Assembly: GCA_015490805.1 (NCBI GenBank)
Contig: WFXC01000002.1
Coordinates: forward strand, 98,437-162,436
Source of the DNA: Candidatus Kapaibacterium sp.
Lineage (GTDB): Bacteria > Bacteroidota > Ignavibacteria > Kapaibacteriales > WFXC01
Reading direction: 5' to 3'
Length of the DNA stretch: 64,000 nt
Below, in pieces: positions 3,834 through 64,000 of the stretch (position 1 is its first letter; each line of letters opens with the position of its first letter). The position numbers and the translations under genes are program-made. The notes under the pieces are model-generated. The model did not search any database, was not told where the DNA came from, and saw only the letters and a program-made list of their open reading frames with translations.

Positions 3834-3933
3834 TCTCGTTTGCACCTTCGCAAGAAATCCCAACTTCATTCGTGATATTGACGCTCGTACTCTCGCACGA
3901 TGCTTCAGTATGTCGCTCAAACGGTGAGGAACA

Positions 3934-4749
3934 ATGGTACCACAGTGGTTTATAGAGCTACATCCAGCGTGGCAGGCGCTCATTGCTACATGTTTTACCT
4001 GGGGCGTAACAGCATTGGGAGCAGCAATGGTGTTTTTCTTCAAAGAAGTTAATCGAACGTTGCTGGACGCAATGCTTGGCTTTGCTGCCGGCGTAATGAT
4101 TGCTGCCAGCTATTGGTCGTTGCTGGCACCGGCCATTGAAATGGCAGAAGATAGCGGAATTCCCGCATGGATCCCCGCCGCAACTGGATTCCTGCTCGGA
4201 GCGGCTTTTTTATGGCTTTCAGACAAACTGATTCCACATCTTCATCTGGACTACCCACTGGAAGAAGCGGAAGGACCTTCTACCCACTGGCATCGGAGCA
4301 TTCTGCTTATCTTAGCAGTTACCATTCACAATTTTCCCGAAGGATTAGCGATCGGTGTTGCGTTTGGGGCGGTATATGCAGGGGCGGAAAGTGCCAGCCT
4401 AGGGGGGGCTCTGGCTCTGGCATTGGGTATCGGTTTGCAGAATTTCCCTGAAGGACTGGCTATTGCAGCACCACTACGCCGCGAAGGATTCTCTCGATGG
4501 AAAAGTTTTCACTTCGGCCATCTCTCCGCTATTGTGGAACCAATTGGCGGTCTTTTAGGGGCAGCTGCCGTTACATACATGAAACCTCTCCTGCCCTACG
4601 CAATGGCATTTGCTGCTGGTGCGATGATCTATGTGGTCATTGAAGAACTGATCCCTGAATCGCAGTTGCACAAACACACCGACACCGCAACTGTGGGTGC
4701 TATCCTGGGATTCACCGTGATGATGGTGCTGGATGTTGCCTTAGGTTAA
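3934..4749 (+). CDS. zupT: ZIP family metal (zinc) transporter ZupT.
   Basis: Signature HNFPEGLA is present twice ([13 protein letters not shown] and [12 protein letters not shown]). Eight TM helices. Confidence 0.85.
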
Positions 4750-6881
4750 CGACGCAGACGTCGGGACTCGACAACGATGTGCACCGTTCGATGATAAAAC
4801 CGCTGCTCTGGGTATCGATATTCGCCTATCGCTTCTCCCTGCCCGATAATGCGCACATTGGGCAAACGGAGGTACTCGGCAACTGTCTGGGCTCGGCGAC
4901 GCGATAAATCACGGTTGTACTGCTCATTTCCCAACGTATCTGTCGTACCAATAACCGTCACCGATGCTCCCTCGGGTATTTGCTGGCGAATCCAGTCCAG
5001 ATACTGCTTGTGTTCTGGCCTCAGCTCTGCCTTATCGAAATCAAACAGGATCAACGTATACCGCTCGATGATCCGGTCACCAATCTGCCGCCGCTGCTTG
5101 CGCTGGTGATGCTGCTGGACAAAAACGAAGTGCGCTACTGGCGTTTGAAATCGCTGCCCAGCACTATCGACCACCTCGAACTGATAGGAAACGGGCTGGT
5201 TCGCCAGTAGCATTCCGGCTTGTGGATTCATTTCCCAGTCCAGTACCGACGGAGGAGATGCCGTTCCCTCCTGCTGAAAAAGCGTACGATCCTGCTGCCA
5301 CACCCGCAATCGCCACCGTGCAATGCCTGCCTCACTGACAACACGCGGACGGAAACGAATGGTGGGAGGATCAACAACCCGGAGGGTGTCCACCAAGGTC
5401 ACAGGGGCAAAGACTTCTGGATCCGTTGCTGCTAATTCGACCCGTGCATTTTCCTCAATAGATTGCGGCTGACTCAGCGGCGACGGATTCGCCGGCAATC
5501 CCCGGCTCTGTACCTGCAACCGCGAAGGCTCAATATGCCACACCGACCGCAAATAGCGCCGCACAAATGCTGCCCGCCGCTGAGAGAGGCTCCGATCATT
5601 CCTTTCTACTGCGCCAGCATTGCATCCTGTGATGGTCAACCGTGCCGACGGTGACCGGCGAAGCCGCAATCCTACGATGTTCAACACGTGGTAGTACACT
5701 GCCAGTGGCGTATCAAAGAATTCCGACCGGATCGCAAAGCGCTCCGCAGCCGATGGCGAAAGCCGCTGATACCGGGCAGGCAGTGTATCCTGTCCCAGGT
5801 CAAAAAACAGGTAGCGCAGCAACGGGACATAATTGTACGACAACAACTCTTCAATCCGCAATTGCGCCTTTTCCGTTTCAATGCCGTTTTTCAGCACAAA
5901 GGCGGTGCGAATCGATGCTGCTAAAAACGGGCGGATGTCCGGTTGCAGCCGCACATAGCGTTCAAATATCTCCGTACGCTCTCGAATAGCATCAGACGTT
6001 TCCGTGCGGATTACGGTCACACGGGTGGTATCCAGTCGAAGCTGGGGCTGTTGAACCGCTGCGGTGATCTTCACCACCGTGTCCCGACGAAAAACCGTAT
6101 CTCGATACACGGGCCTGGGAGACGGGAAATGCCAGCGCAGCGCTACACTTCCTCCCACTTGTTGCTCCCGGACGTCTCCGGCTGTCCACCACGGCTGTAA
6201 GCCCATCGCACCACTCACACCGGAAACAAGTTGCAGTGGCGGCGTCAGGTTGAAACGAAACTGGAGTCCTGCTGTCAATCCCCACCACGGCGTTTCAACA
6301 GCAACATTTCCAGTGGCTAACTGTTGCGTCGCCGTGCCACTGCCCACAAAAGTTGCTCCCGGCGGCTGGCGAATAACTTCCTGCTGACGAAAAACGCTGC
6401 GAAGTGGATACACTGCGAATCCGCCGGCAGTGATGGCGAACCACGGTACGGGCGACCATTCTACTGCCAGTTTCCCGATCAATCGGTGATGCTCTCCATT
6501 TAACTGATGCTCGATCACCACCGTCTGGGGATTGCCAAAAACAATGCCGATGGTTTGTTGCAGCTTCGTCCACTGCGACCGCTGATATTGATAGCCAGCC
6601 GCTAATGCAACAGCGAACTTTGCATTTGCCGGATAGCGCATTTGAGCGAGGGCTGTACCATACCAGCCACTGGCCTTCTGGAAAATTCCGGGGCGATATG
6701 GAAAATCTGGTAATTGCTCAAAGCTGCCACGCAATTGCACCACTCCTCCCTGCAATGCTACGCCCCATCCTATTGGCTGTGCCGGAAGTGAGGACAGCAG
6801 CACAAAGAAACTCACCAGAGCAACGCCCGTATACCAGCCCCGGTGCTTCAGGACGGTAGATGCTGTTTCGCCTGTTCCCAT
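4746..6881 (-). CDS. Large outer-membrane protein with a signal peptide, an N-terminal beta-barrel-like region and C-terminal OmpA-like peptidoglycan-binding domain(s). Paralog of the 36228-38225 protein.
   Basis: C-terminus ...[17 protein letters not shown]...[25 protein letters not shown] is a classic OmpA_C motif. A second, degenerate OmpA-like segment is [24 protein letters not shown]. Shares conserved blocks with the 36228-38225 product. Confidence 0.65.
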
Positions 6882-60361: not shown

Positions 60362-60655
60362 TTGCGCTGGTTGTTTCCCCCACTTTGTGTAAACTTGCAT
60401 TTTGGTTGGACGGATGCAAAAAGAACGATGCAGTGGTGGGAATCCCCGGTTCAGCTCAATAAGCGGCAATCTGCTATCTTCGTCGGTGCTTACGTGTTTT
60501 TTACCCTTCTCCTCCGCTGGTACTACATCGAACCGCTCCTGAAAGGCAATTTCTGGCTCTCGGTTGCCATCGGTGCCGCTTTCCTGGCGGTCATCTGGGT
60601 ACTGATCAAAGTAAAATTTCTGAATTTTCGGGAACAAAGTGAAGAGGAGCAATGA
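60362..60655 (+). CDS. Small hypothetical membrane protein.
   Basis: Two predicted TM helices. Stop overlaps the next ATG (ATGA). Real start may be ATG 60428. Confidence 0.3.
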   Translation: MRWLFPPLCVNLHFGWTDAKRTMQWWESPVQLNKRQSAIFVGAYVFFTLLLRWYYIEPLLKGNFWLSVAIGAAFLAVIWVLIKVKFLNFREQSEEEQ

Positions 60656-61197
60656 GAATTACGGCAGACAAAACGCTGGCGGTTATTGTGGACGTCCAGG
60701 AACGACTTTTTCCTCACATTGCAGAACACGAAAAGCTGGAGCGCACTATCCCGATTCTGATCGAGGGACTCAAAGCGCTGGACGTGCCGCTCATCGTCAC
60801 CGAACAGTATCCAAAAGGGCTGGGCACGACAATCGAATCAGTCCGTAAAGCACTGGGTGAATGGTACAAACCGCTGGAGAAAATTTCTTTTAGCTGCTGC
60901 GGAGACGATCAGTTCAATTTGCAAGTAGCTCGCTATGCACCGCAGTATGTTTTGCTGGCAGGAATTGAAACCCACGTGTGCGTGCTGCAAACAGCAATTG
61001 ACCTGCTCAACGAAGGTTACACGCCTGTTTTAGTTGCAAACTGCGTTTCGTCGCGGTTTCTGGAGGACAAAGAATTTGCTCTTCGGCGGATGGAACAGGC
61101 CGGCGTCGTCCTCACAACGTACGAATCGATCCTCTTCGAGCTGGCGCAGGTCGCCGGTACGGACACTTTCAAACGCATTTCGAAGCTGGTCAAGTAA
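60652..61197 (+). CDS. Isochorismatase-family cysteine hydrolase (YcaC-like).
   Basis: LAVIVDVQE...LLAGIETHVCVLQTAIDL, with the catalytic Cys in the HVCV context. Confidence 0.8.
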   Translation: MRITADKTLAVIVDVQERLFPHIAEHEKLERTIPILIEGLKALDVPLIVTEQYPKGLGTTIESVRKALGEWYKPLEKISFSCCGDDQFNLQVARYAPQYVLLAGIETHVCVLQTAIDLLNEGYTPVLVANCVSSRFLEDKEFALRRMEQAGVVLTTYESILFELAQVAGTDTFKRISKLVK

Positions 61198-61199
61198 AG

Positions 61200-62855
61200 C
61201 TACACAGCGCAGCAACTGAGCTGCCGAACATCCTGCTCAAAACTCAACGCTGCCAGCTTCATACCTTCGGCAAAGGTAAGATACGGACACCAGTTCTGCG
61301 CGAGCTCTGTGACCGGGATACGATACCGCATCGCCCACTGCAACGGAACGATCAGCTCACCTGCTGCTGGAGCAACGATCCGAGCGCCAAGCAATAGATC
61401 GGTTGCTGGATCTCGAACGAGGCGGATAAAGCCATCCGTTTGCTGACTCACAATCGCCCGTGGCACTTCTGCCAGCGGCAACTCTGTTACCTCATAATCC
61501 CGCCCCTGCTGTTCCAGCTGGACGGTATCTTTGCCGACGCCTGCTACCTGCGGATCGGTAAAAATCACCCAGGGCAGGGTTGTATAATCCAGTGGCTGCG
61601 GCTGTCCGGTGAAATTCTGCACTGCCTGCCGTCCCTCGGCTGCCGCGGTATAGACAAACGCCGGAAACTGATTGCAATCACCAGCCGCATAGATATGCGG
61701 AACGCTGCTCTGCAGGTATTCATTCACCACAACTTTTCCCTGCGCATCAGTCTCCACACCAATTTGCTCCAATCCCAGCCGCTGCGTCCGCCCCCGTCGC
61801 CCCGTCGCAATCAAAAGATGGGTCGCTGCAATGGAGATCTGCTCGCCACCACGATCCACCGTTACTGCAATAGTGCCGTTGCCCTGAGCGGATACGCTTT
61901 CTACTCGCGCGGCTGTGTAAATCTGCACCCCTTCGGCTTCCAGTTGCTGCTGAATAATGCGCCCAATATCCGGCGACTCTGGCGGCAACAACGACGGTTG
62001 CATTTCGATCAACACCACCTGCGATCCAAAGCGTGCAAACGCTTGAGCAAGCTCAACGCCCACCGCACCGCCACCGATGATTGCCAGAACCGAGGGAAGT
62101 TCGGTCACATCGAACAGGGTCTCATTGGTAAGATATGGGACTGCTTCTATGCCGGGAATTGGCGGCACTGCCGGTTCTGAACCCGTGGCGATGAGGAAGG
62201 CATCAGCCGTATAAAGCGTTTCACCTACCCGAATGGTATGCGGATCAACGAAGGTTGCCCATCCCTCAACCCACGTCACAGTTGCCAGCGTTTCCAGAAT
62301 ATCCGCGTATTTCGCCTTCCGAAGCTGCTGCACTGTTTGCTGCAACTGCTGCTGCAACGCAGCATAATCCAGATCGGGAGGATCAGCGGTAATACCAGCA
62401 TACCGCTGCTTCCGGCAGGCTGCCATCTGATGCGCCGCCTCCACGAGAAATTTGGAAGGAATACAACCGACGTTCACACAGGTTCCGCCCATTGGTAACC
62501 CGGCATTTACCACCAGCGTTTGCAATCCCTGCCGATGGGCTTCAATAGCCGCAGCAAAGGCGGCGGAACCTCCGCCGATGATGATCAAATCGAAATGTCG
62601 TTCTTTCCCGTTCGAGTTACCAGTAGCTCGCCCTTCTTCAGCCACTGCCCGATACTGCTTTGTACTGTTGATCTGGTCAATAATTGCCTGAATAGAAAGC
62701 TGCGCCGGATCATAGCGCACAACTGCCGTTCCTTCAGGATAAGCGACTTCGACTGCTGCCACGCCCGGTAGTTGGTGCACGATACGCTCCACTGTACGGG
62801 CACATCCCGGACAGGTCATCCCCGAAATGCGCAGATGAACTTCCCGAACGTTCAT
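61200..62855 (-). CDS. merA: Mercuric reductase MerA with an N-terminal HMA (NmerA) domain.
   Basis: GMTCPGCA HMA motif. Redox-active GGTCVNVGCIPSK. C-terminal Cys pair ...LSCCAV. Confidence 0.85.
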   Translation of the reverse strand: MNVREVHLRISGMTCPGCARTVERIVHQLPGVAAVEVAYPEGTAVVRYDPAQLSIQAIIDQINSTKQYRAVAEEGRATGNSNGKERHFDLIIIGGGSAAFAAAIEAHRQGLQTLVVNAGLPMGGTCVNVGCIPSKFLVEAAHQMAACRKQRYAGITADPPDLDYAALQQQLQQTVQQLRKAKYADILETLATVTWVEGWATFVDPHTIRVGETLYTADAFLIATGSEPAVPPIPGIEAVPYLTNETLFDVTELPSVLAIIGGGAVGVELAQAFARFGSQVVLIEMQPSLLPPESPDIGRIIQQQLEAEGVQIYTAARVESVSAQGNGTIAVTVDRGGEQISIAATHLLIATGRRGRTQRLGLEQIGVETDAQGKVVVNEYLQSSVPHIYAAGDCNQFPAFVYTAAAEGRQAVQNFTGQPQPLDYTTLPWVIFTDPQVAGVGKDTVQLEQQGRDYEVTELPLAEVPRAIVSQQTDGFIRLVRDPATDLLLGARIVAPAAGELIVPLQWAMRYRIPVTELAQNWCPYLTFAEGMKLAALSFEQDVRQLSCCAV

Positions 62856-63454
62856 TGCTGCTGCCCTCCTGTCAGCAATTGATACGCGACCGGATGATAC
62901 CCCGTCTGCTCAATCGCTGCCTCGATCTGCTCCACTGTTACCTGCTGTGGTGCGAATGCCACTTTGACCGTCCCTGCATCTGCATCGGCTTTCACCATCG
63001 CAATACCCGGCATTTTGCTAAGCTCATATTCGATGTGCTCTTCACATCCAGCACAGGTCATTCCTTCCACCTGCACCATCACTTCCTGCACTGTGCCGGC
63101 AACCTGCGCCGGCGCTGCCTTCGGATAGAGATACTCCACGTAGGAAGGAAAGAGCAGCATAGCAGTGGCAAACACCGTGATGGCGATGAGAAATCCCCGC
63201 GATCGGAACCAGGATGGTTTTTGATCCTCTTCGCACTCACAGGCAATCCGCTGACTTCGCAAATGCTGATACCACGCCAGTCCTAAGGCTCCGATCGTTA
63301 CAACCGCTAAGTATGGACGCAATGGTTCAAGCCAGCTGACAGAGCTGGCAACACCGCTGACGCCGGCAACAAACGCTAAAAAAGGAGTAATACAGCAAAG
63401 GGAAGCGGCAAATGCGGCAAATACGCTGGTGAAGAGAACCTTTGCCTGTTTCAT
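62852..63454 (-). CDS. merT: Mercuric ion transporter MerT fused to a MerP-like HMA domain (MerTP).
   Basis: First TM helix with Cys pair SLCCITP. Second Cys pair CEC. C-terminal GMTCAGCEEH heavy-metal-associated domain. ATGA coupling to merA. Confidence 0.7.
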   Translation of the reverse strand: MKQAKVLFTSVFAAFAASLCCITPFLAFVAGVSGVASSVSWLEPLRPYLAVVTIGALGLAWYQHLRSQRIACECEEDQKPSWFRSRGFLIAITVFATAMLLFPSYVEYLYPKAAPAQVAGTVQEVMVQVEGMTCAGCEEHIEYELSKMPGIAMVKADADAGTVKVAFAPQQVTVEQIEAAIEQTGYHPVAYQLLTGGQQQ

Positions 63455-63771
63455 TGCTGGACCCTTTCTTTGACTAACATTGATGAATCAAACAGCGACT
63501 CAAGCCACATTCGTGCCGTCGGAGTCAATGTGTAAAAGATGGTTTGCCCCTCCCGGCGTGTCTGGACGATACCGGCATCCCGCAGCTTCCGCAAATGCTG
63601 GGAAACGGCTGACACGCTGAGCCGGAGAATATCTGCCAGATCACACGGGCACAGCTCTCCTTCACGGAGCAACACCATTACCGTCTGCAATCGCGGCGCT
63701 GCCCCCAGCAGTGCAAAATTTCGCGCTAGGAGTTCCAGCTCCTCCTTCGCTCCGCAAGAAATTGCCGACAT
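63451..63771 (-). CDS. ArsR/SmtB-family metalloregulatory repressor, likely the mer operon regulator.
   Basis: HTH with metal-sensing motif ELCPCDLADILRLSVSAVSQHLRKL. First gene of the arsR-merTP-merA string, coupled by ATGA overlaps. Confidence 0.8.
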   Translation of the reverse strand: MSAISCGAKEELELLARNFALLGAAPRLQTVMVLLREGELCPCDLADILRLSVSAVSQHLRKLRDAGIVQTRREGQTIFYTLTPTARMWLESLFDSSMLVKERVQQ

Positions 63772-63882
63772 CGCAGAATCTGCGCCTCATCTGCCTGCGA
63801 TCGGATACAAACGGGTTTTGTCATTACTGTCTTCCTTCATTGAAGCTCATCCTTTCGCTGTGAGGAACGTTCAATCAGTTTT

Positions 63883-63908
63883 AATATTTTAGCAAATGCT
63901 AAAATATT
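63883..63908. promoter_or_regulatory. Perfect 12-2-12 inverted repeat: candidate ArsR/SmtB operator for the mer operon.
   Basis: AATATTTTAGCA-AA-TGCTAAAATATT, 112 nt upstream of the arsR start, in an AT-rich promoter-like region. Confidence 0.5.
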
Positions 63909-64000
63909 GTACATAGGCAATAACTTTATACTTTCAAAAGGCTCTCCAGATTGGCTTGAGACTCTTACGAAGGCACCTCAGCGAATTTTTCAAACGTCAG

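Follow-up and report, generated by a model that had tools for sequence, protein, structure and literature searches.

The DNA analysed here, called the window below, is a stretch of 64,000 nucleotides from Candidatus Kapaibacterium sp. Close to its end, on the minus strand, lies a mercury resistance (mer) operon. It consists of an ArsR/SmtB-type regulator, a MerT-MerP fusion (merTP) and a mercuric reductase (merA). A first-pass annotation had described the operon in these terms, and the family scores, which are above curated cutoffs, agree. The minus-strand open reading frames run from 63771 to 63451 (106 aa), from 63454 to 62852 (200 aa) and from 62855 to 61200 (551 aa). They are joined by ATGA stop/start overlaps at 63454-63451 (regulator/merTP) and at 62855-62852 (merTP/merA). 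Three such overlaps had been reported. The two at gene junctions hold; the third does not, and is a TAATGA at 63826-63821, where an 8-codon reading frame abuts the regulator start. That small frame (63850-63824) is unconserved in the homologous loci L001 or L002, and was dropped.

As described earlier, a convergent isochorismatase gene (60652..61197) stops 2 bp from the end of merA. On the other side, 92 bp separate the palindrome discussed below from the end of the window, close to the 90 bp first estimated. A weak hairpin (61213-61199) that resembles a terminator covers the merA stop; it is within chance expectation, so no terminator is claimed.

The product of merTP (62852..63454, minus strand) has a MerT membrane core and a C-terminal MerP-like HMA domain. 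This fusion had been proposed before, and it is borne out by Pfam matches to MerT and HMA and by the NF033556 MerTP_fusion model, against which the protein scores 218.8 bits (cutoff 180), with residues 10-187 aligned to model positions 2-184 of 186. Its cysteines come in pairs: C20/C21 in TM1, C72/C74 in the cytoplasmic loop and C134/C137 in the HMA domain. Two segments only rise above a simple hydropathy threshold, where three transmembrane segments are expected from MerT homology. The charge distribution, together with this three-segment homology, would imply that the HMA domain is periplasmic.

The merA gene (61200..62855, minus strand) encodes a protein with an N-terminal NmerA HMA domain (GMTCPGC), which scores 495.9 bits against the equivalog model TIGR02053 (cutoff 454.45). 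The criteria of Boyd & Barkay (PMC3466566) for MerA are a redox CxxxxC pair, vicinal C-terminal cysteines and two tyrosines. Here these are found as the redox-active pair GGTCVNVGC, the C-terminal pair LSCCAV, and the tyrosines of VPYLT and CPYLT. In an end-to-end alignment, the catalytic residues all match those of the solved MerA structures 5x1y and 1zk7. Judged by its sequence, the product is a mercuric reductase, and NADPH-dependent Hg(II)-reducing activity is predicted.

The regulator needs a longer description. Its ArsR/SmtB-type assignment stands: the ELCPCDL motif is present, and the protein scores 82.7 bits against NF033788 (cutoff 55) and 61.1 bits against PF01022 (HTH_5, cutoff 22). 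The NCBIfam class is that of a generic metalloregulator subfamily only. The 106-aa reading frame had been taken for the whole gene, but it is actually the tail of a 124-aa gene, and a frameshift had been overlooked. The native start is the ATG at 63824, and family members are about 124-126 aa long. With L001, L002 and L005 as reference, one nucleotide is deleted at 63748/63747, and the frame that starts at ATG 63824 stops at the TAG at 63728-63726. The 5' segment (63726..63824, minus strand) encodes the N-terminal arm MTKPVCIRSQADEAQILRCRQFLAE with the conserved C6 and C19, and the frame is lost after codon 25-26. The 3' open reading frame (63451..63771, minus strand) encodes the DNA-binding body, a winged helix that includes the invariant CPC of ELCPCDL. 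The first 8 codons of this 106-aa frame (MSAISCGA) are out-of-frame sequence; from residue 9 to residue 106, its product matches the intact L005 protein (residues 27-124) without a single difference.

This means that both parts of the regulator are encoded, but that the sensing arm is cut off from the DNA-binding body. The arm pattern CxR...Q-I-x-x-C and the body pattern L-CxC-D occur in one polypeptide in the L005 allele, and in the window the deletion splits them over two frames. By analogy with intact relatives, the regulator of the window strain is probably null or uninducible. The internal ATG at 63771 could be the source of some 106-aa protein.

The frameshift might also be an assembly or sequencing artefact, in which case the true genome has an intact 124-aa regulator and a standard Hg-inducible operon. 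We think this unlikely. L003, L004 and L006, three contigs that differ in length and were assembled separately, all have the deletion, which sits at a GG dinucleotide with no long homopolymer. The deletion was not found in L005, L001, L002 or any more distant homologue examined. Indel errors are possible in MAG contigs, and the contig names of the sister MAGs indicate low coverage. Over 11,441 positions, L005, where the gene is intact, shows only 9 differences from L003, but the linked differences near the regulator in L005 fit a distinct allele and not random error. The three deletion-bearing assemblies possibly come from related samples; a systematic error shared by them is unlikely.

Upstream of the native start lies a perfect 12-2-12 palindrome (63883..63908), which on the plus strand reads AATATTTTAGCA-AA-TGCTAAAATATT. 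Its arms, at 63883-63894 and 63897-63908, are as first described. Its distance to the native ATG is 58 nt, and not the 112 nt given before. The 64-kb window was scanned for perfect inverted repeats (arms 9 nt or longer, spacer no longer than 6 nt), and this is the sole repeat within those limits. The chance expectation for 12-nt arms is about 0.026 per window, and 25 simulations produced 0.

The palindrome is not particular to this genome. The family core is ATTTTAG-N6-CTAAAAT, and the window has ATTTTAG-CATTTG-CTAAAAT. The pattern TTTWAG-N6-CTWAAA is present upstream of 56 of the 72 homologous regulators, against 0 matches in 286 kb of flanking DNA. The L007 operator carries a symmetric double substitution which keeps the palindrome. 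The core was not found upstream of L010, an orphan, non-mer homologue of the regulator. L096, a more distant Kapaibacterium, has another palindrome and another regulator subtype, and is uninformative on the window operator. That the palindrome serves as the regulator's operator had already been suggested, and this is supported by its conservation across many genomes, by the change in L007 and by its overlap with the promoter. On this comparative evidence, it is a real, family-wide operator. The regulator family thereby gains a well supported operator consensus, TATTTAAG-yATTTG-CTTAAATA, which should be usable for regulon annotation and for the design of Hg biosensors in Bacteroidota hosts.

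A consensus scan places a candidate sigma-70-like promoter at 63886..63913 on the minus strand, with the caveat that the sigma-70 consensus may not be that of Kapabacteria. It is composed of TGTACA (63913-63908), a 16-nt spacer and an extended -10, TGcTAAAAT (63894-63886), which sits within the promoter-proximal arm of the operator. L001, L002 and L015 share the -10 but not the -35. Bacteroidota loci look different. There, the central TTTG of the operator is followed at 19-21 nt by TAnnTTTG in 37 of 51 distinct sites (the upstream control yields 1). Bacteroidota operators are centred on the -33 promoter element (TTTG). This Bacteroidota-type -7 element, TAnnTTTG, was not found in the Kapaibacterium lineage loci, where the proximal arm reads as an extended -10 instead. 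The Kapaibacterium leader is also longer, at about 58 nt versus a median of about 25 nt.

The first-pass annotation called the architecture unusual in an FCB genome, and possibly laterally acquired. Neither description is supported. Boyd & Barkay (2012) report ArsR-like regulators in the mer operons of Bacteroidetes (PMC3466566), a 2023 paper on Gelidibacter salicanalis describes ArsR, MerT/P and MerA as co-directional (PMC10587081), and NCBIfam includes a curated equivalog model for MerTP_fusion. The layout of ArsR, MerTP and MerA is that of the standard FCB/Bacteroidota mercury operon, and as such is neither an oddity nor a sign of lateral transfer.

A recent acquisition by the window genome is in our view quite improbable. 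Mer operons are often mobile, and some features of the surroundings would fit a transfer: the upstream neighbour varies by lineage (L003, L001, L007), the window and L001 cease to be homologous exactly at the distal edge of the operator, and L096 has the operon in another neighbourhood. On the downstream side, however, L007 keeps the block of isochorismatase, 75-aa gene and epimerase, even though its Mer proteins are only 58-61% identical, and the mer genes have diverged in step with the flanking isochorismatase gene. The GC content of the operon is 0.553, compared to 0.522 for the window and 0.51 to 0.59 for neighbouring genes, and GC3 is neighbour-like as well. Mobile elements had been proposed as something to look for in the flanks. 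No integrase or transposase genes were found within about 4 kb upstream and 10 kb downstream on the source contig, and no tRNA gene in the operon flanks; with the ordinary composition, this leaves the operon without the marks of a mobile mer element (transposase or integrase, tRNA target, atypical composition). The named top homologues of MerA are all from FCB organisms, and operator and regulator are Bacteroidota-type. The suggestion of lateral acquisition had come with the remark that a MerA within FCB lineages and a conserved neighbourhood would speak against it, and this is largely what the named homologues and the synteny in L007 look like.

What the intact regulator senses can be approached through its conserved residues. 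Among 54 homologues, C6, R8, Q15, I16 and C19 are each at least 90% conserved, and the CPC is invariant. Of 80 metagenomic relatives, 69 have the signature of CxR, second cysteine and CxC. Among proteins of solved structure, those nearest to the regulator are HlyU, a CadC-like protein and SmtB, and the N-terminal arm aligns with the arm of Lmo1102, a CadC-like solved protein. In 69 of 75 loci of the mer-linked regulator family, merTP is the next gene after the regulator, and across homologous loci the two overlap or are tightly spaced. This linkage, together with published relatives, points to Hg(II) as the effector. A regulator that senses another metal or metalloid (As, Cd, Zn, Pb) or a thiol/redox signal, and is next to mer genes by coincidence, is very hard to believe in: ELCxCDL is common to As(III)- and Cd-responsive ArsR/CadC proteins, and the solved relatives and the generic NCBIfam subfamily would fit such a sensor, but merTP follows this regulator family with great regularity, the operator overlaps the promoter of the very operon that the regulator gene opens, and Allen et al. 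(2013) reportedly found a Tenacibaculum homologue to be mercury-responsive.

The best reading of the locus, to which we assign a probability of roughly 85%, is that of a chromosomal, narrow-spectrum mer operon of the FCB type, which is ArsR-repressed in intact strains and of which the regulator is frameshifted here. In the intact form, in sister strains, a 124-aa repressor dimer would sit on the operator and block its own gene, merTP and merA. Hg(II) would then be bound by C6 and C19 of the arm and by the CPC thiolates of alpha-3, in a CadC-like alpha-3N site, after which the repressor would leave the DNA. The tethered, predicted periplasmic MerP-like domain of MerTP would capture Hg(II), which would then move via the MerT cysteine pairs into the cytoplasm. 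NmerA and the C-terminal cysteines would deliver it there to the active site of MerA, to be reduced to volatile Hg(0). The gene identities, the operator with its conservation, and the frameshift are direct findings; the chemistry of Hg sensing, the route of transport and the effect of the frameshift are drawn from analogy.

In the window strain, the regulator is most likely absent or strongly reduced, because the 1-nt deletion puts the sensing arm and the DNA-binding body into different frames, and expression would be constitutive. The alternative there would be an N-truncated repressor without a normal Hg response. The frameshift allele, if real, offers a natural test of the need for the N-terminal cysteines in Hg sensing.

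Frameshift and promoter also allow a more speculative account, in two separate parts. A real allele, segregating in a natural Kapaibacterium population, would abolish or cripple the repressor and hard-wire merTP and merA on. Separately, the proximal operator arm would have been re-used as the extended -10 of a sigma-70-like promoter, in place of an operator centred on a -33 TTTG element. We regard this account as possible but doubtful. If true, chronic exposure to mercury would have selected a regulatory knockout in nature. The lineage would also offer a small case in which the Bacteroidota operator was kept and the promoter around it was re-wired.

Among known systems, the closest are the Bacteroidota-type mer operons, as in Tenacibaculum discolor 9A5 and Gelidibacter salicanalis PAMC21136. 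These have the same co-directional regulator, MerTP and MerA, are likewise tightly packed behind a single upstream promoter, and share the operator core TTTWAG-N6-CTWAAA. The same arrangement exists in Elizabethkingia anophelis, in Prolixibacter sp. NT017 and in many MAGs. The host of the window operon belongs to the Kapabacteria and not to the Bacteroidia or Flavobacteriia, and the frameshift in the regulator is a further difference. The Tenacibaculum operon has an extra merP gene, which the window operon lacks. The Bacteroidota mer regulator is said by Allen et al. to have evolved independently.

CadC of Staphylococcus aureus pI258, like other alpha-3N ArsR/SmtB sensors, also is a winged-helix protein with an alpha-3 CxC and cysteines in its N-terminal arm, and its 12-2-12-type palindrome likewise overlaps a promoter. 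Sequence similarity to the window regulator is low (E about 1e-8 to 1e-11). The half-sites differ (ATTTTAG in the window, the TGAACA type for CadC), and CadC governs the CadA efflux pump where the window regulator governs mer genes. The second arm cysteine also differs in position, being C19 in the window regulator and C11 in CadC.

Further away, the ArsR-family MerR of Streptomyces lividans and the ArsR-type mer regulators of Sulfolobus (cited in PMC3466566) are likewise repressors of mer genes that Hg(II) relieves. These too belong to the ArsR/SmtB and not the MerR family. Actinobacterial mer operons, unlike the one in the window, have other transporters and no MerTP fusion. The proteobacterial Tn21/Tn501 systems share the MerA chemistry and the MerT/MerP cysteine relay, and the full MerA core aligns with 1zk7. 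In contrast to the window, they have a divergent MerR-family activator/repressor, keep merT and merP as two separate genes and typically reside on transposons.

A minor observation concerns the positions at which L005 and L003 differ. Seven of the 9 cluster in the region of operator, arsR and 5' merTP (binomial P about 1e-7). Selection was considered as the cause and rejected: 4 of the 5 merTP SNPs are synonymous and within 25 nt. The clustering more probably reflects a short tract of recombination, or strains mixed in the assembly. One of the differences, a C to T change in the distal operator arm of L005, was tried as an operator-down mutation that compensates for the intact regulator, in which case the operon would be derepressed with either allele. 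This was rejected because the same T is natural in Prolixibacter, and is the family majority at that position (31 T versus 18 C).

The mer operon of the window is a Kapabacteria member of the already known Bacteroidota-type mer operon. It lies on the minus strand, with a regulator ORF listed at 106 aa (63771..63451), a merTP ORF of 200 aa (63454..62852) and a merA ORF of 551 aa (62855..61200). ATGA overlaps join these at 63454-63451 and 62855-62852. The first-pass annotation counted three such overlaps, but only these two are real gene junctions; the third is in the TAATGA at 63826-63821, the point at which a short ORF of 8 codons, not conserved, meets the regulator's true start codon.

The reductase scores 495.9 bits against the NCBIfam equivalog TIGR02053 (cutoff 454.45) and can be aligned from end to end with MerA proteins of known structure (5x1y and 1zk7). 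It has an HMA domain at its N-terminus, and keeps the redox pair GGTCVNVGC, the tyrosines of VPYLT and CPYLT, and the C-terminal SCCA pair. The 200-aa protein is the MerT-MerP fusion it was taken for: it scores 218.8 bits against the curated equivalog NF033556, 'MerTP_fusion' (cutoff 180), and has all three cysteine pairs, namely C20/C21 (the Cys-Cys of MerT TM1), C72/C74 (loop) and C134/C137 (the CxxC of the HMA domain). Tenacibaculum discolor 9A5 reportedly also has such a fusion, with an ArsR-type Hg-responsive regulator.

As annotated, the regulator is of the ArsR/SmtB type (NF033788, 82.7 bits against a cutoff of 55; also PF01022). Its homologues are however some 124-126 aa long, as opposed to 106 aa, and start with an arm, CxR..AD..QI..C, that is absent from the listed ORF. 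An alignment of 54 homologues shows C59-P60-C61 to be invariant, and conservation of 90% or more at C6, R8, Q15, I16 and C19. Of 80 metagenomic relatives, 69 have the signature of CxR, second Cys and CxC; CVC occurs in 48 and CPC in 27.

Among solved structures, the nearest relatives are HlyU, SmtB, CadC and a CadC-like Listeria protein, whose arm can be aligned with that of the window's regulator. By analogy with the alpha-3N site of CadC, Hg(II) would be bound by the arm cysteines together with the CxC pair of helix alpha-3. Such binding would then release the regulator dimer from its operator.

The coding sequence for the arm is present in the window. It starts at ATG 63824 and reads MTKPVCIRSQADEAQILRCRQFLAE. 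One G is missing at 63748/63747 (L003:~3923), where the window has GAGC-GAAGG and sister contigs have GAGCGGAAGG or GAACGGAAGG, so the frame from this ATG ends at TAG 63728-63726, after 32 codons. This splits the conserved, Cys-bearing arm from the DNA-binding domain. The first eight residues of the listed ORF are read out of frame; the rest, 9-106, match 27-124 of the intact allele at 100% identity.

This frameshift, which the first-pass annotation did not have, is polymorphic among near-identical strains. Over 12.8 kb the window is 100% identical to JALTYB010000029.1 of GCA_027046495.1 (L003), and the deletion is common to three separately assembled contigs (L003, L004 and L006). A fourth, L005, has an intact 124-aa regulator (L005:1879) and just 9 differences from L003 in 11,441 positions. 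All more distant relatives have an intact regulator too, which makes the deletion derived. With three assemblies in agreement and no more than a GG dinucleotide at the site, an assembly artefact is unlikely. The deletion is thus probably a real polymorphism.

Translation from 63824 would terminate at 63726, and the internal ATG at 63771 is within the short ORF, with only a distant GAGG upstream. This favours a null or strongly reduced repressor, and constitutive merTP-merA expression is the most likely state of this allele as read from its sequence. The second possibility is that an N-truncated repressor is made, which would be poorly inducible.

Seven of the nine L005-L003 differences (the contigs are 99.92% identical) fall within some 730 nt that run from the operator through arsR into the 5' part of merTP (L005:1729-2455; window ~63898 to 63170). 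Four are inside a 25-nt stretch of merTP, most of them synonymous and one giving A91G. Such clustering suggests a short tract of recombination, or strains mixed in the assembly.

The perfect 12-2-12 palindrome upstream was well called. Its arms occupy 63883-63894 and 63897-63908. A search of the 64 kb for perfect inverted repeats (arms of 9 nt or more, spacer of 6 nt or less) finds this one alone. Analytically, about 0.026 palindromes with 12-nt arms are expected, and 25 first-order Markov simulations gave none. No second copy of the 9-2-9 core exists in the window, even with up to 3 mismatches.

Similar sites lie upstream of other mer-linked homologues. The related loci L001, L002 and L015 have ATTTTAGCA-TT-TGCTAAAAT, and L007 has ATTTTAGAA-TT-TTCTAAAAT, with a double change placed symmetrically so that the palindrome is kept. 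Further forms are ATATTTAAGCA-TT-TGCTTAAATAT in Elizabethkingia (L011), CATTATTTAAGC-GTTT-GCTTAAATAATG in the related locus L008, AACATTATTTAAG-CAAATA-CTTAAATAATGTT in Dyadobacter (L012) and TATTTAAG-TATTTG-CTTAAATA in Prolixibacter (L013). An orphan homologue away from mer genes (L010) has no such palindrome upstream. Of 80 metagenomic loci, 72 could be used to survey up to 200 nt upstream of the regulator. The strict core TTTWAG-N6-CTWAAA was present in 56 of these and a relaxed form in 66, against 0 strict cores in the remaining 286 kb of locus sequence. The palindrome is thus the predicted family-wide operator of mer-linked regulators, with consensus TATTTAAG-yATTTG-CTTAAATA.

This well-supported consensus, a second addition to the first-pass annotation, is embedded in the predicted promoter. 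The operator centre is asymmetric, and the orientation of its 'ATTTG' relative to the gene is fixed in more than 90% of sites. Downstream, TAnnTTTG follows in 39 of 51 distinct sites, in 37 of them 19-21 nt from the central TTTG; the upstream control has one occurrence. A -33/-7 promoter geometry is described for Bacteroides and Flavobacterium. The spacing found here matches it, which would centre the repressor site on the -33 element in the Bacteroidota loci (L016-L095, L011 and L013). TAnnTTTG was not found in the Kapaibacterium lineage (window, L001, L007, L015). There the promoter-proximal arm is TGcTAAAAT, a putative extended -10, with TGTACA 16 nt further upstream in the window. Leaders of the Kapaibacterium loci are also some 30 nt longer: the family median is about 25 nt, and the window has 58 nt. 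In both lineages the operator appears to overlap the candidate core promoter, in keeping with repression.

The observation in the first-pass annotation was largely correct, but FCB homologues, typical GC, clean flanks, downstream synteny and literature speak against its suggestion that the operon is unusual in the FCB group and may be laterally acquired. The genomes closest to the window are Candidatus Kapaibacterium MAGs. Every named MerA homologue among the top 120 belongs to the FCB group, at 41-49% identity (Saprospiraceae, Chlorobi, Rhodothermus, Flavilitoribacter, Echinicola, Thermoflavifilum, Mucilaginibacter, Cytophagales and Kapaibacterium). The gene after the mer-linked ArsR-type regulator is merTP in 69 of 75 loci, with Elizabethkingia, Prolixibacter and Dyadobacter as named examples. 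Roughly one locus in three has a reductase downstream of the regulator, and ~8 of 52 have a close MerA there. Bacteroidetes mer operons are known to encode ArsR-like regulators (Boyd & Barkay 2012, PMC3466566), and in Gelidibacter ArsR, MerT/P and MerA are co-directional under a single promoter (PMC10587081). The mer operon of Tenacibaculum discolor 9A5 has a co-oriented regulator (Allen et al. 2013).

Operon GC (0.553) and GC3 are inside the range of the neighbours. The flanks had been left for inspection for mobile elements; on the source contig there is no integrase, transposase or tRNA gene within ~4 kb upstream and 10 kb downstream. The stop of merA is, as noted earlier, 2 bp from the end of a convergent isochorismatase-family gene (60652..61197, PF00857). 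L007, with Mer proteins only 58-61% identical to the window's, retains this gene, a 75-aa gene and the epimerase/DUF1731 block. MerA and isochorismatase diverge by 5.6% versus 1.7% in L001 and 42% versus 17% in L007, a similar ratio at both distances.

The 75-aa gene is a small membrane-like ORF, MQWWESPVQLNKRQSAIFVGAYVFF... as called (window 60362-60655, plus strand; L003:7016-7243, minus strand), overlapping the start of the isochorismatase gene. Its conservation in L007 is ~85%, and a Pfam search gave no match.

Upstream, homology among Kapaibacterium lineages stops precisely where the operator ends on its distal side (window 63908-64000; L001:2640-2800; L007:640-760). L003, L001 and L007 each have a different upstream neighbourhood but keep the downstream block, and the region before the operon is a putative rearrangement hotspot. 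A more distant Kapaibacterium, L096 (BPHJ01000001.1), has an overlapping arsR-merTP-merA operon at 3893-6674 in an unrelated neighbourhood, with a CVC-type regulator and an upstream palindrome, ATAACA-GGTT-TGTTAT, both unlike the window's. Given these variable neighbours and the different location in L096, older transfers of the operon within FCB may have occurred.

The upstream neighbours of the three lineages are a 113-aa and a 332-aa gene, both function-unknown, an 814-aa Ig-like repeat protein, and a 211-aa gene on the opposite strand. Modules of regulator and merTP without an adjacent close merA occur in Dyadobacter (L012), in the related locus L014 and in many marine loci among L020-L095. 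Some of these carry, in addition, a small HMA (MerP-like) gene or a pyridine-nucleotide disulfide reductase that is distantly similar (25-29% identity).
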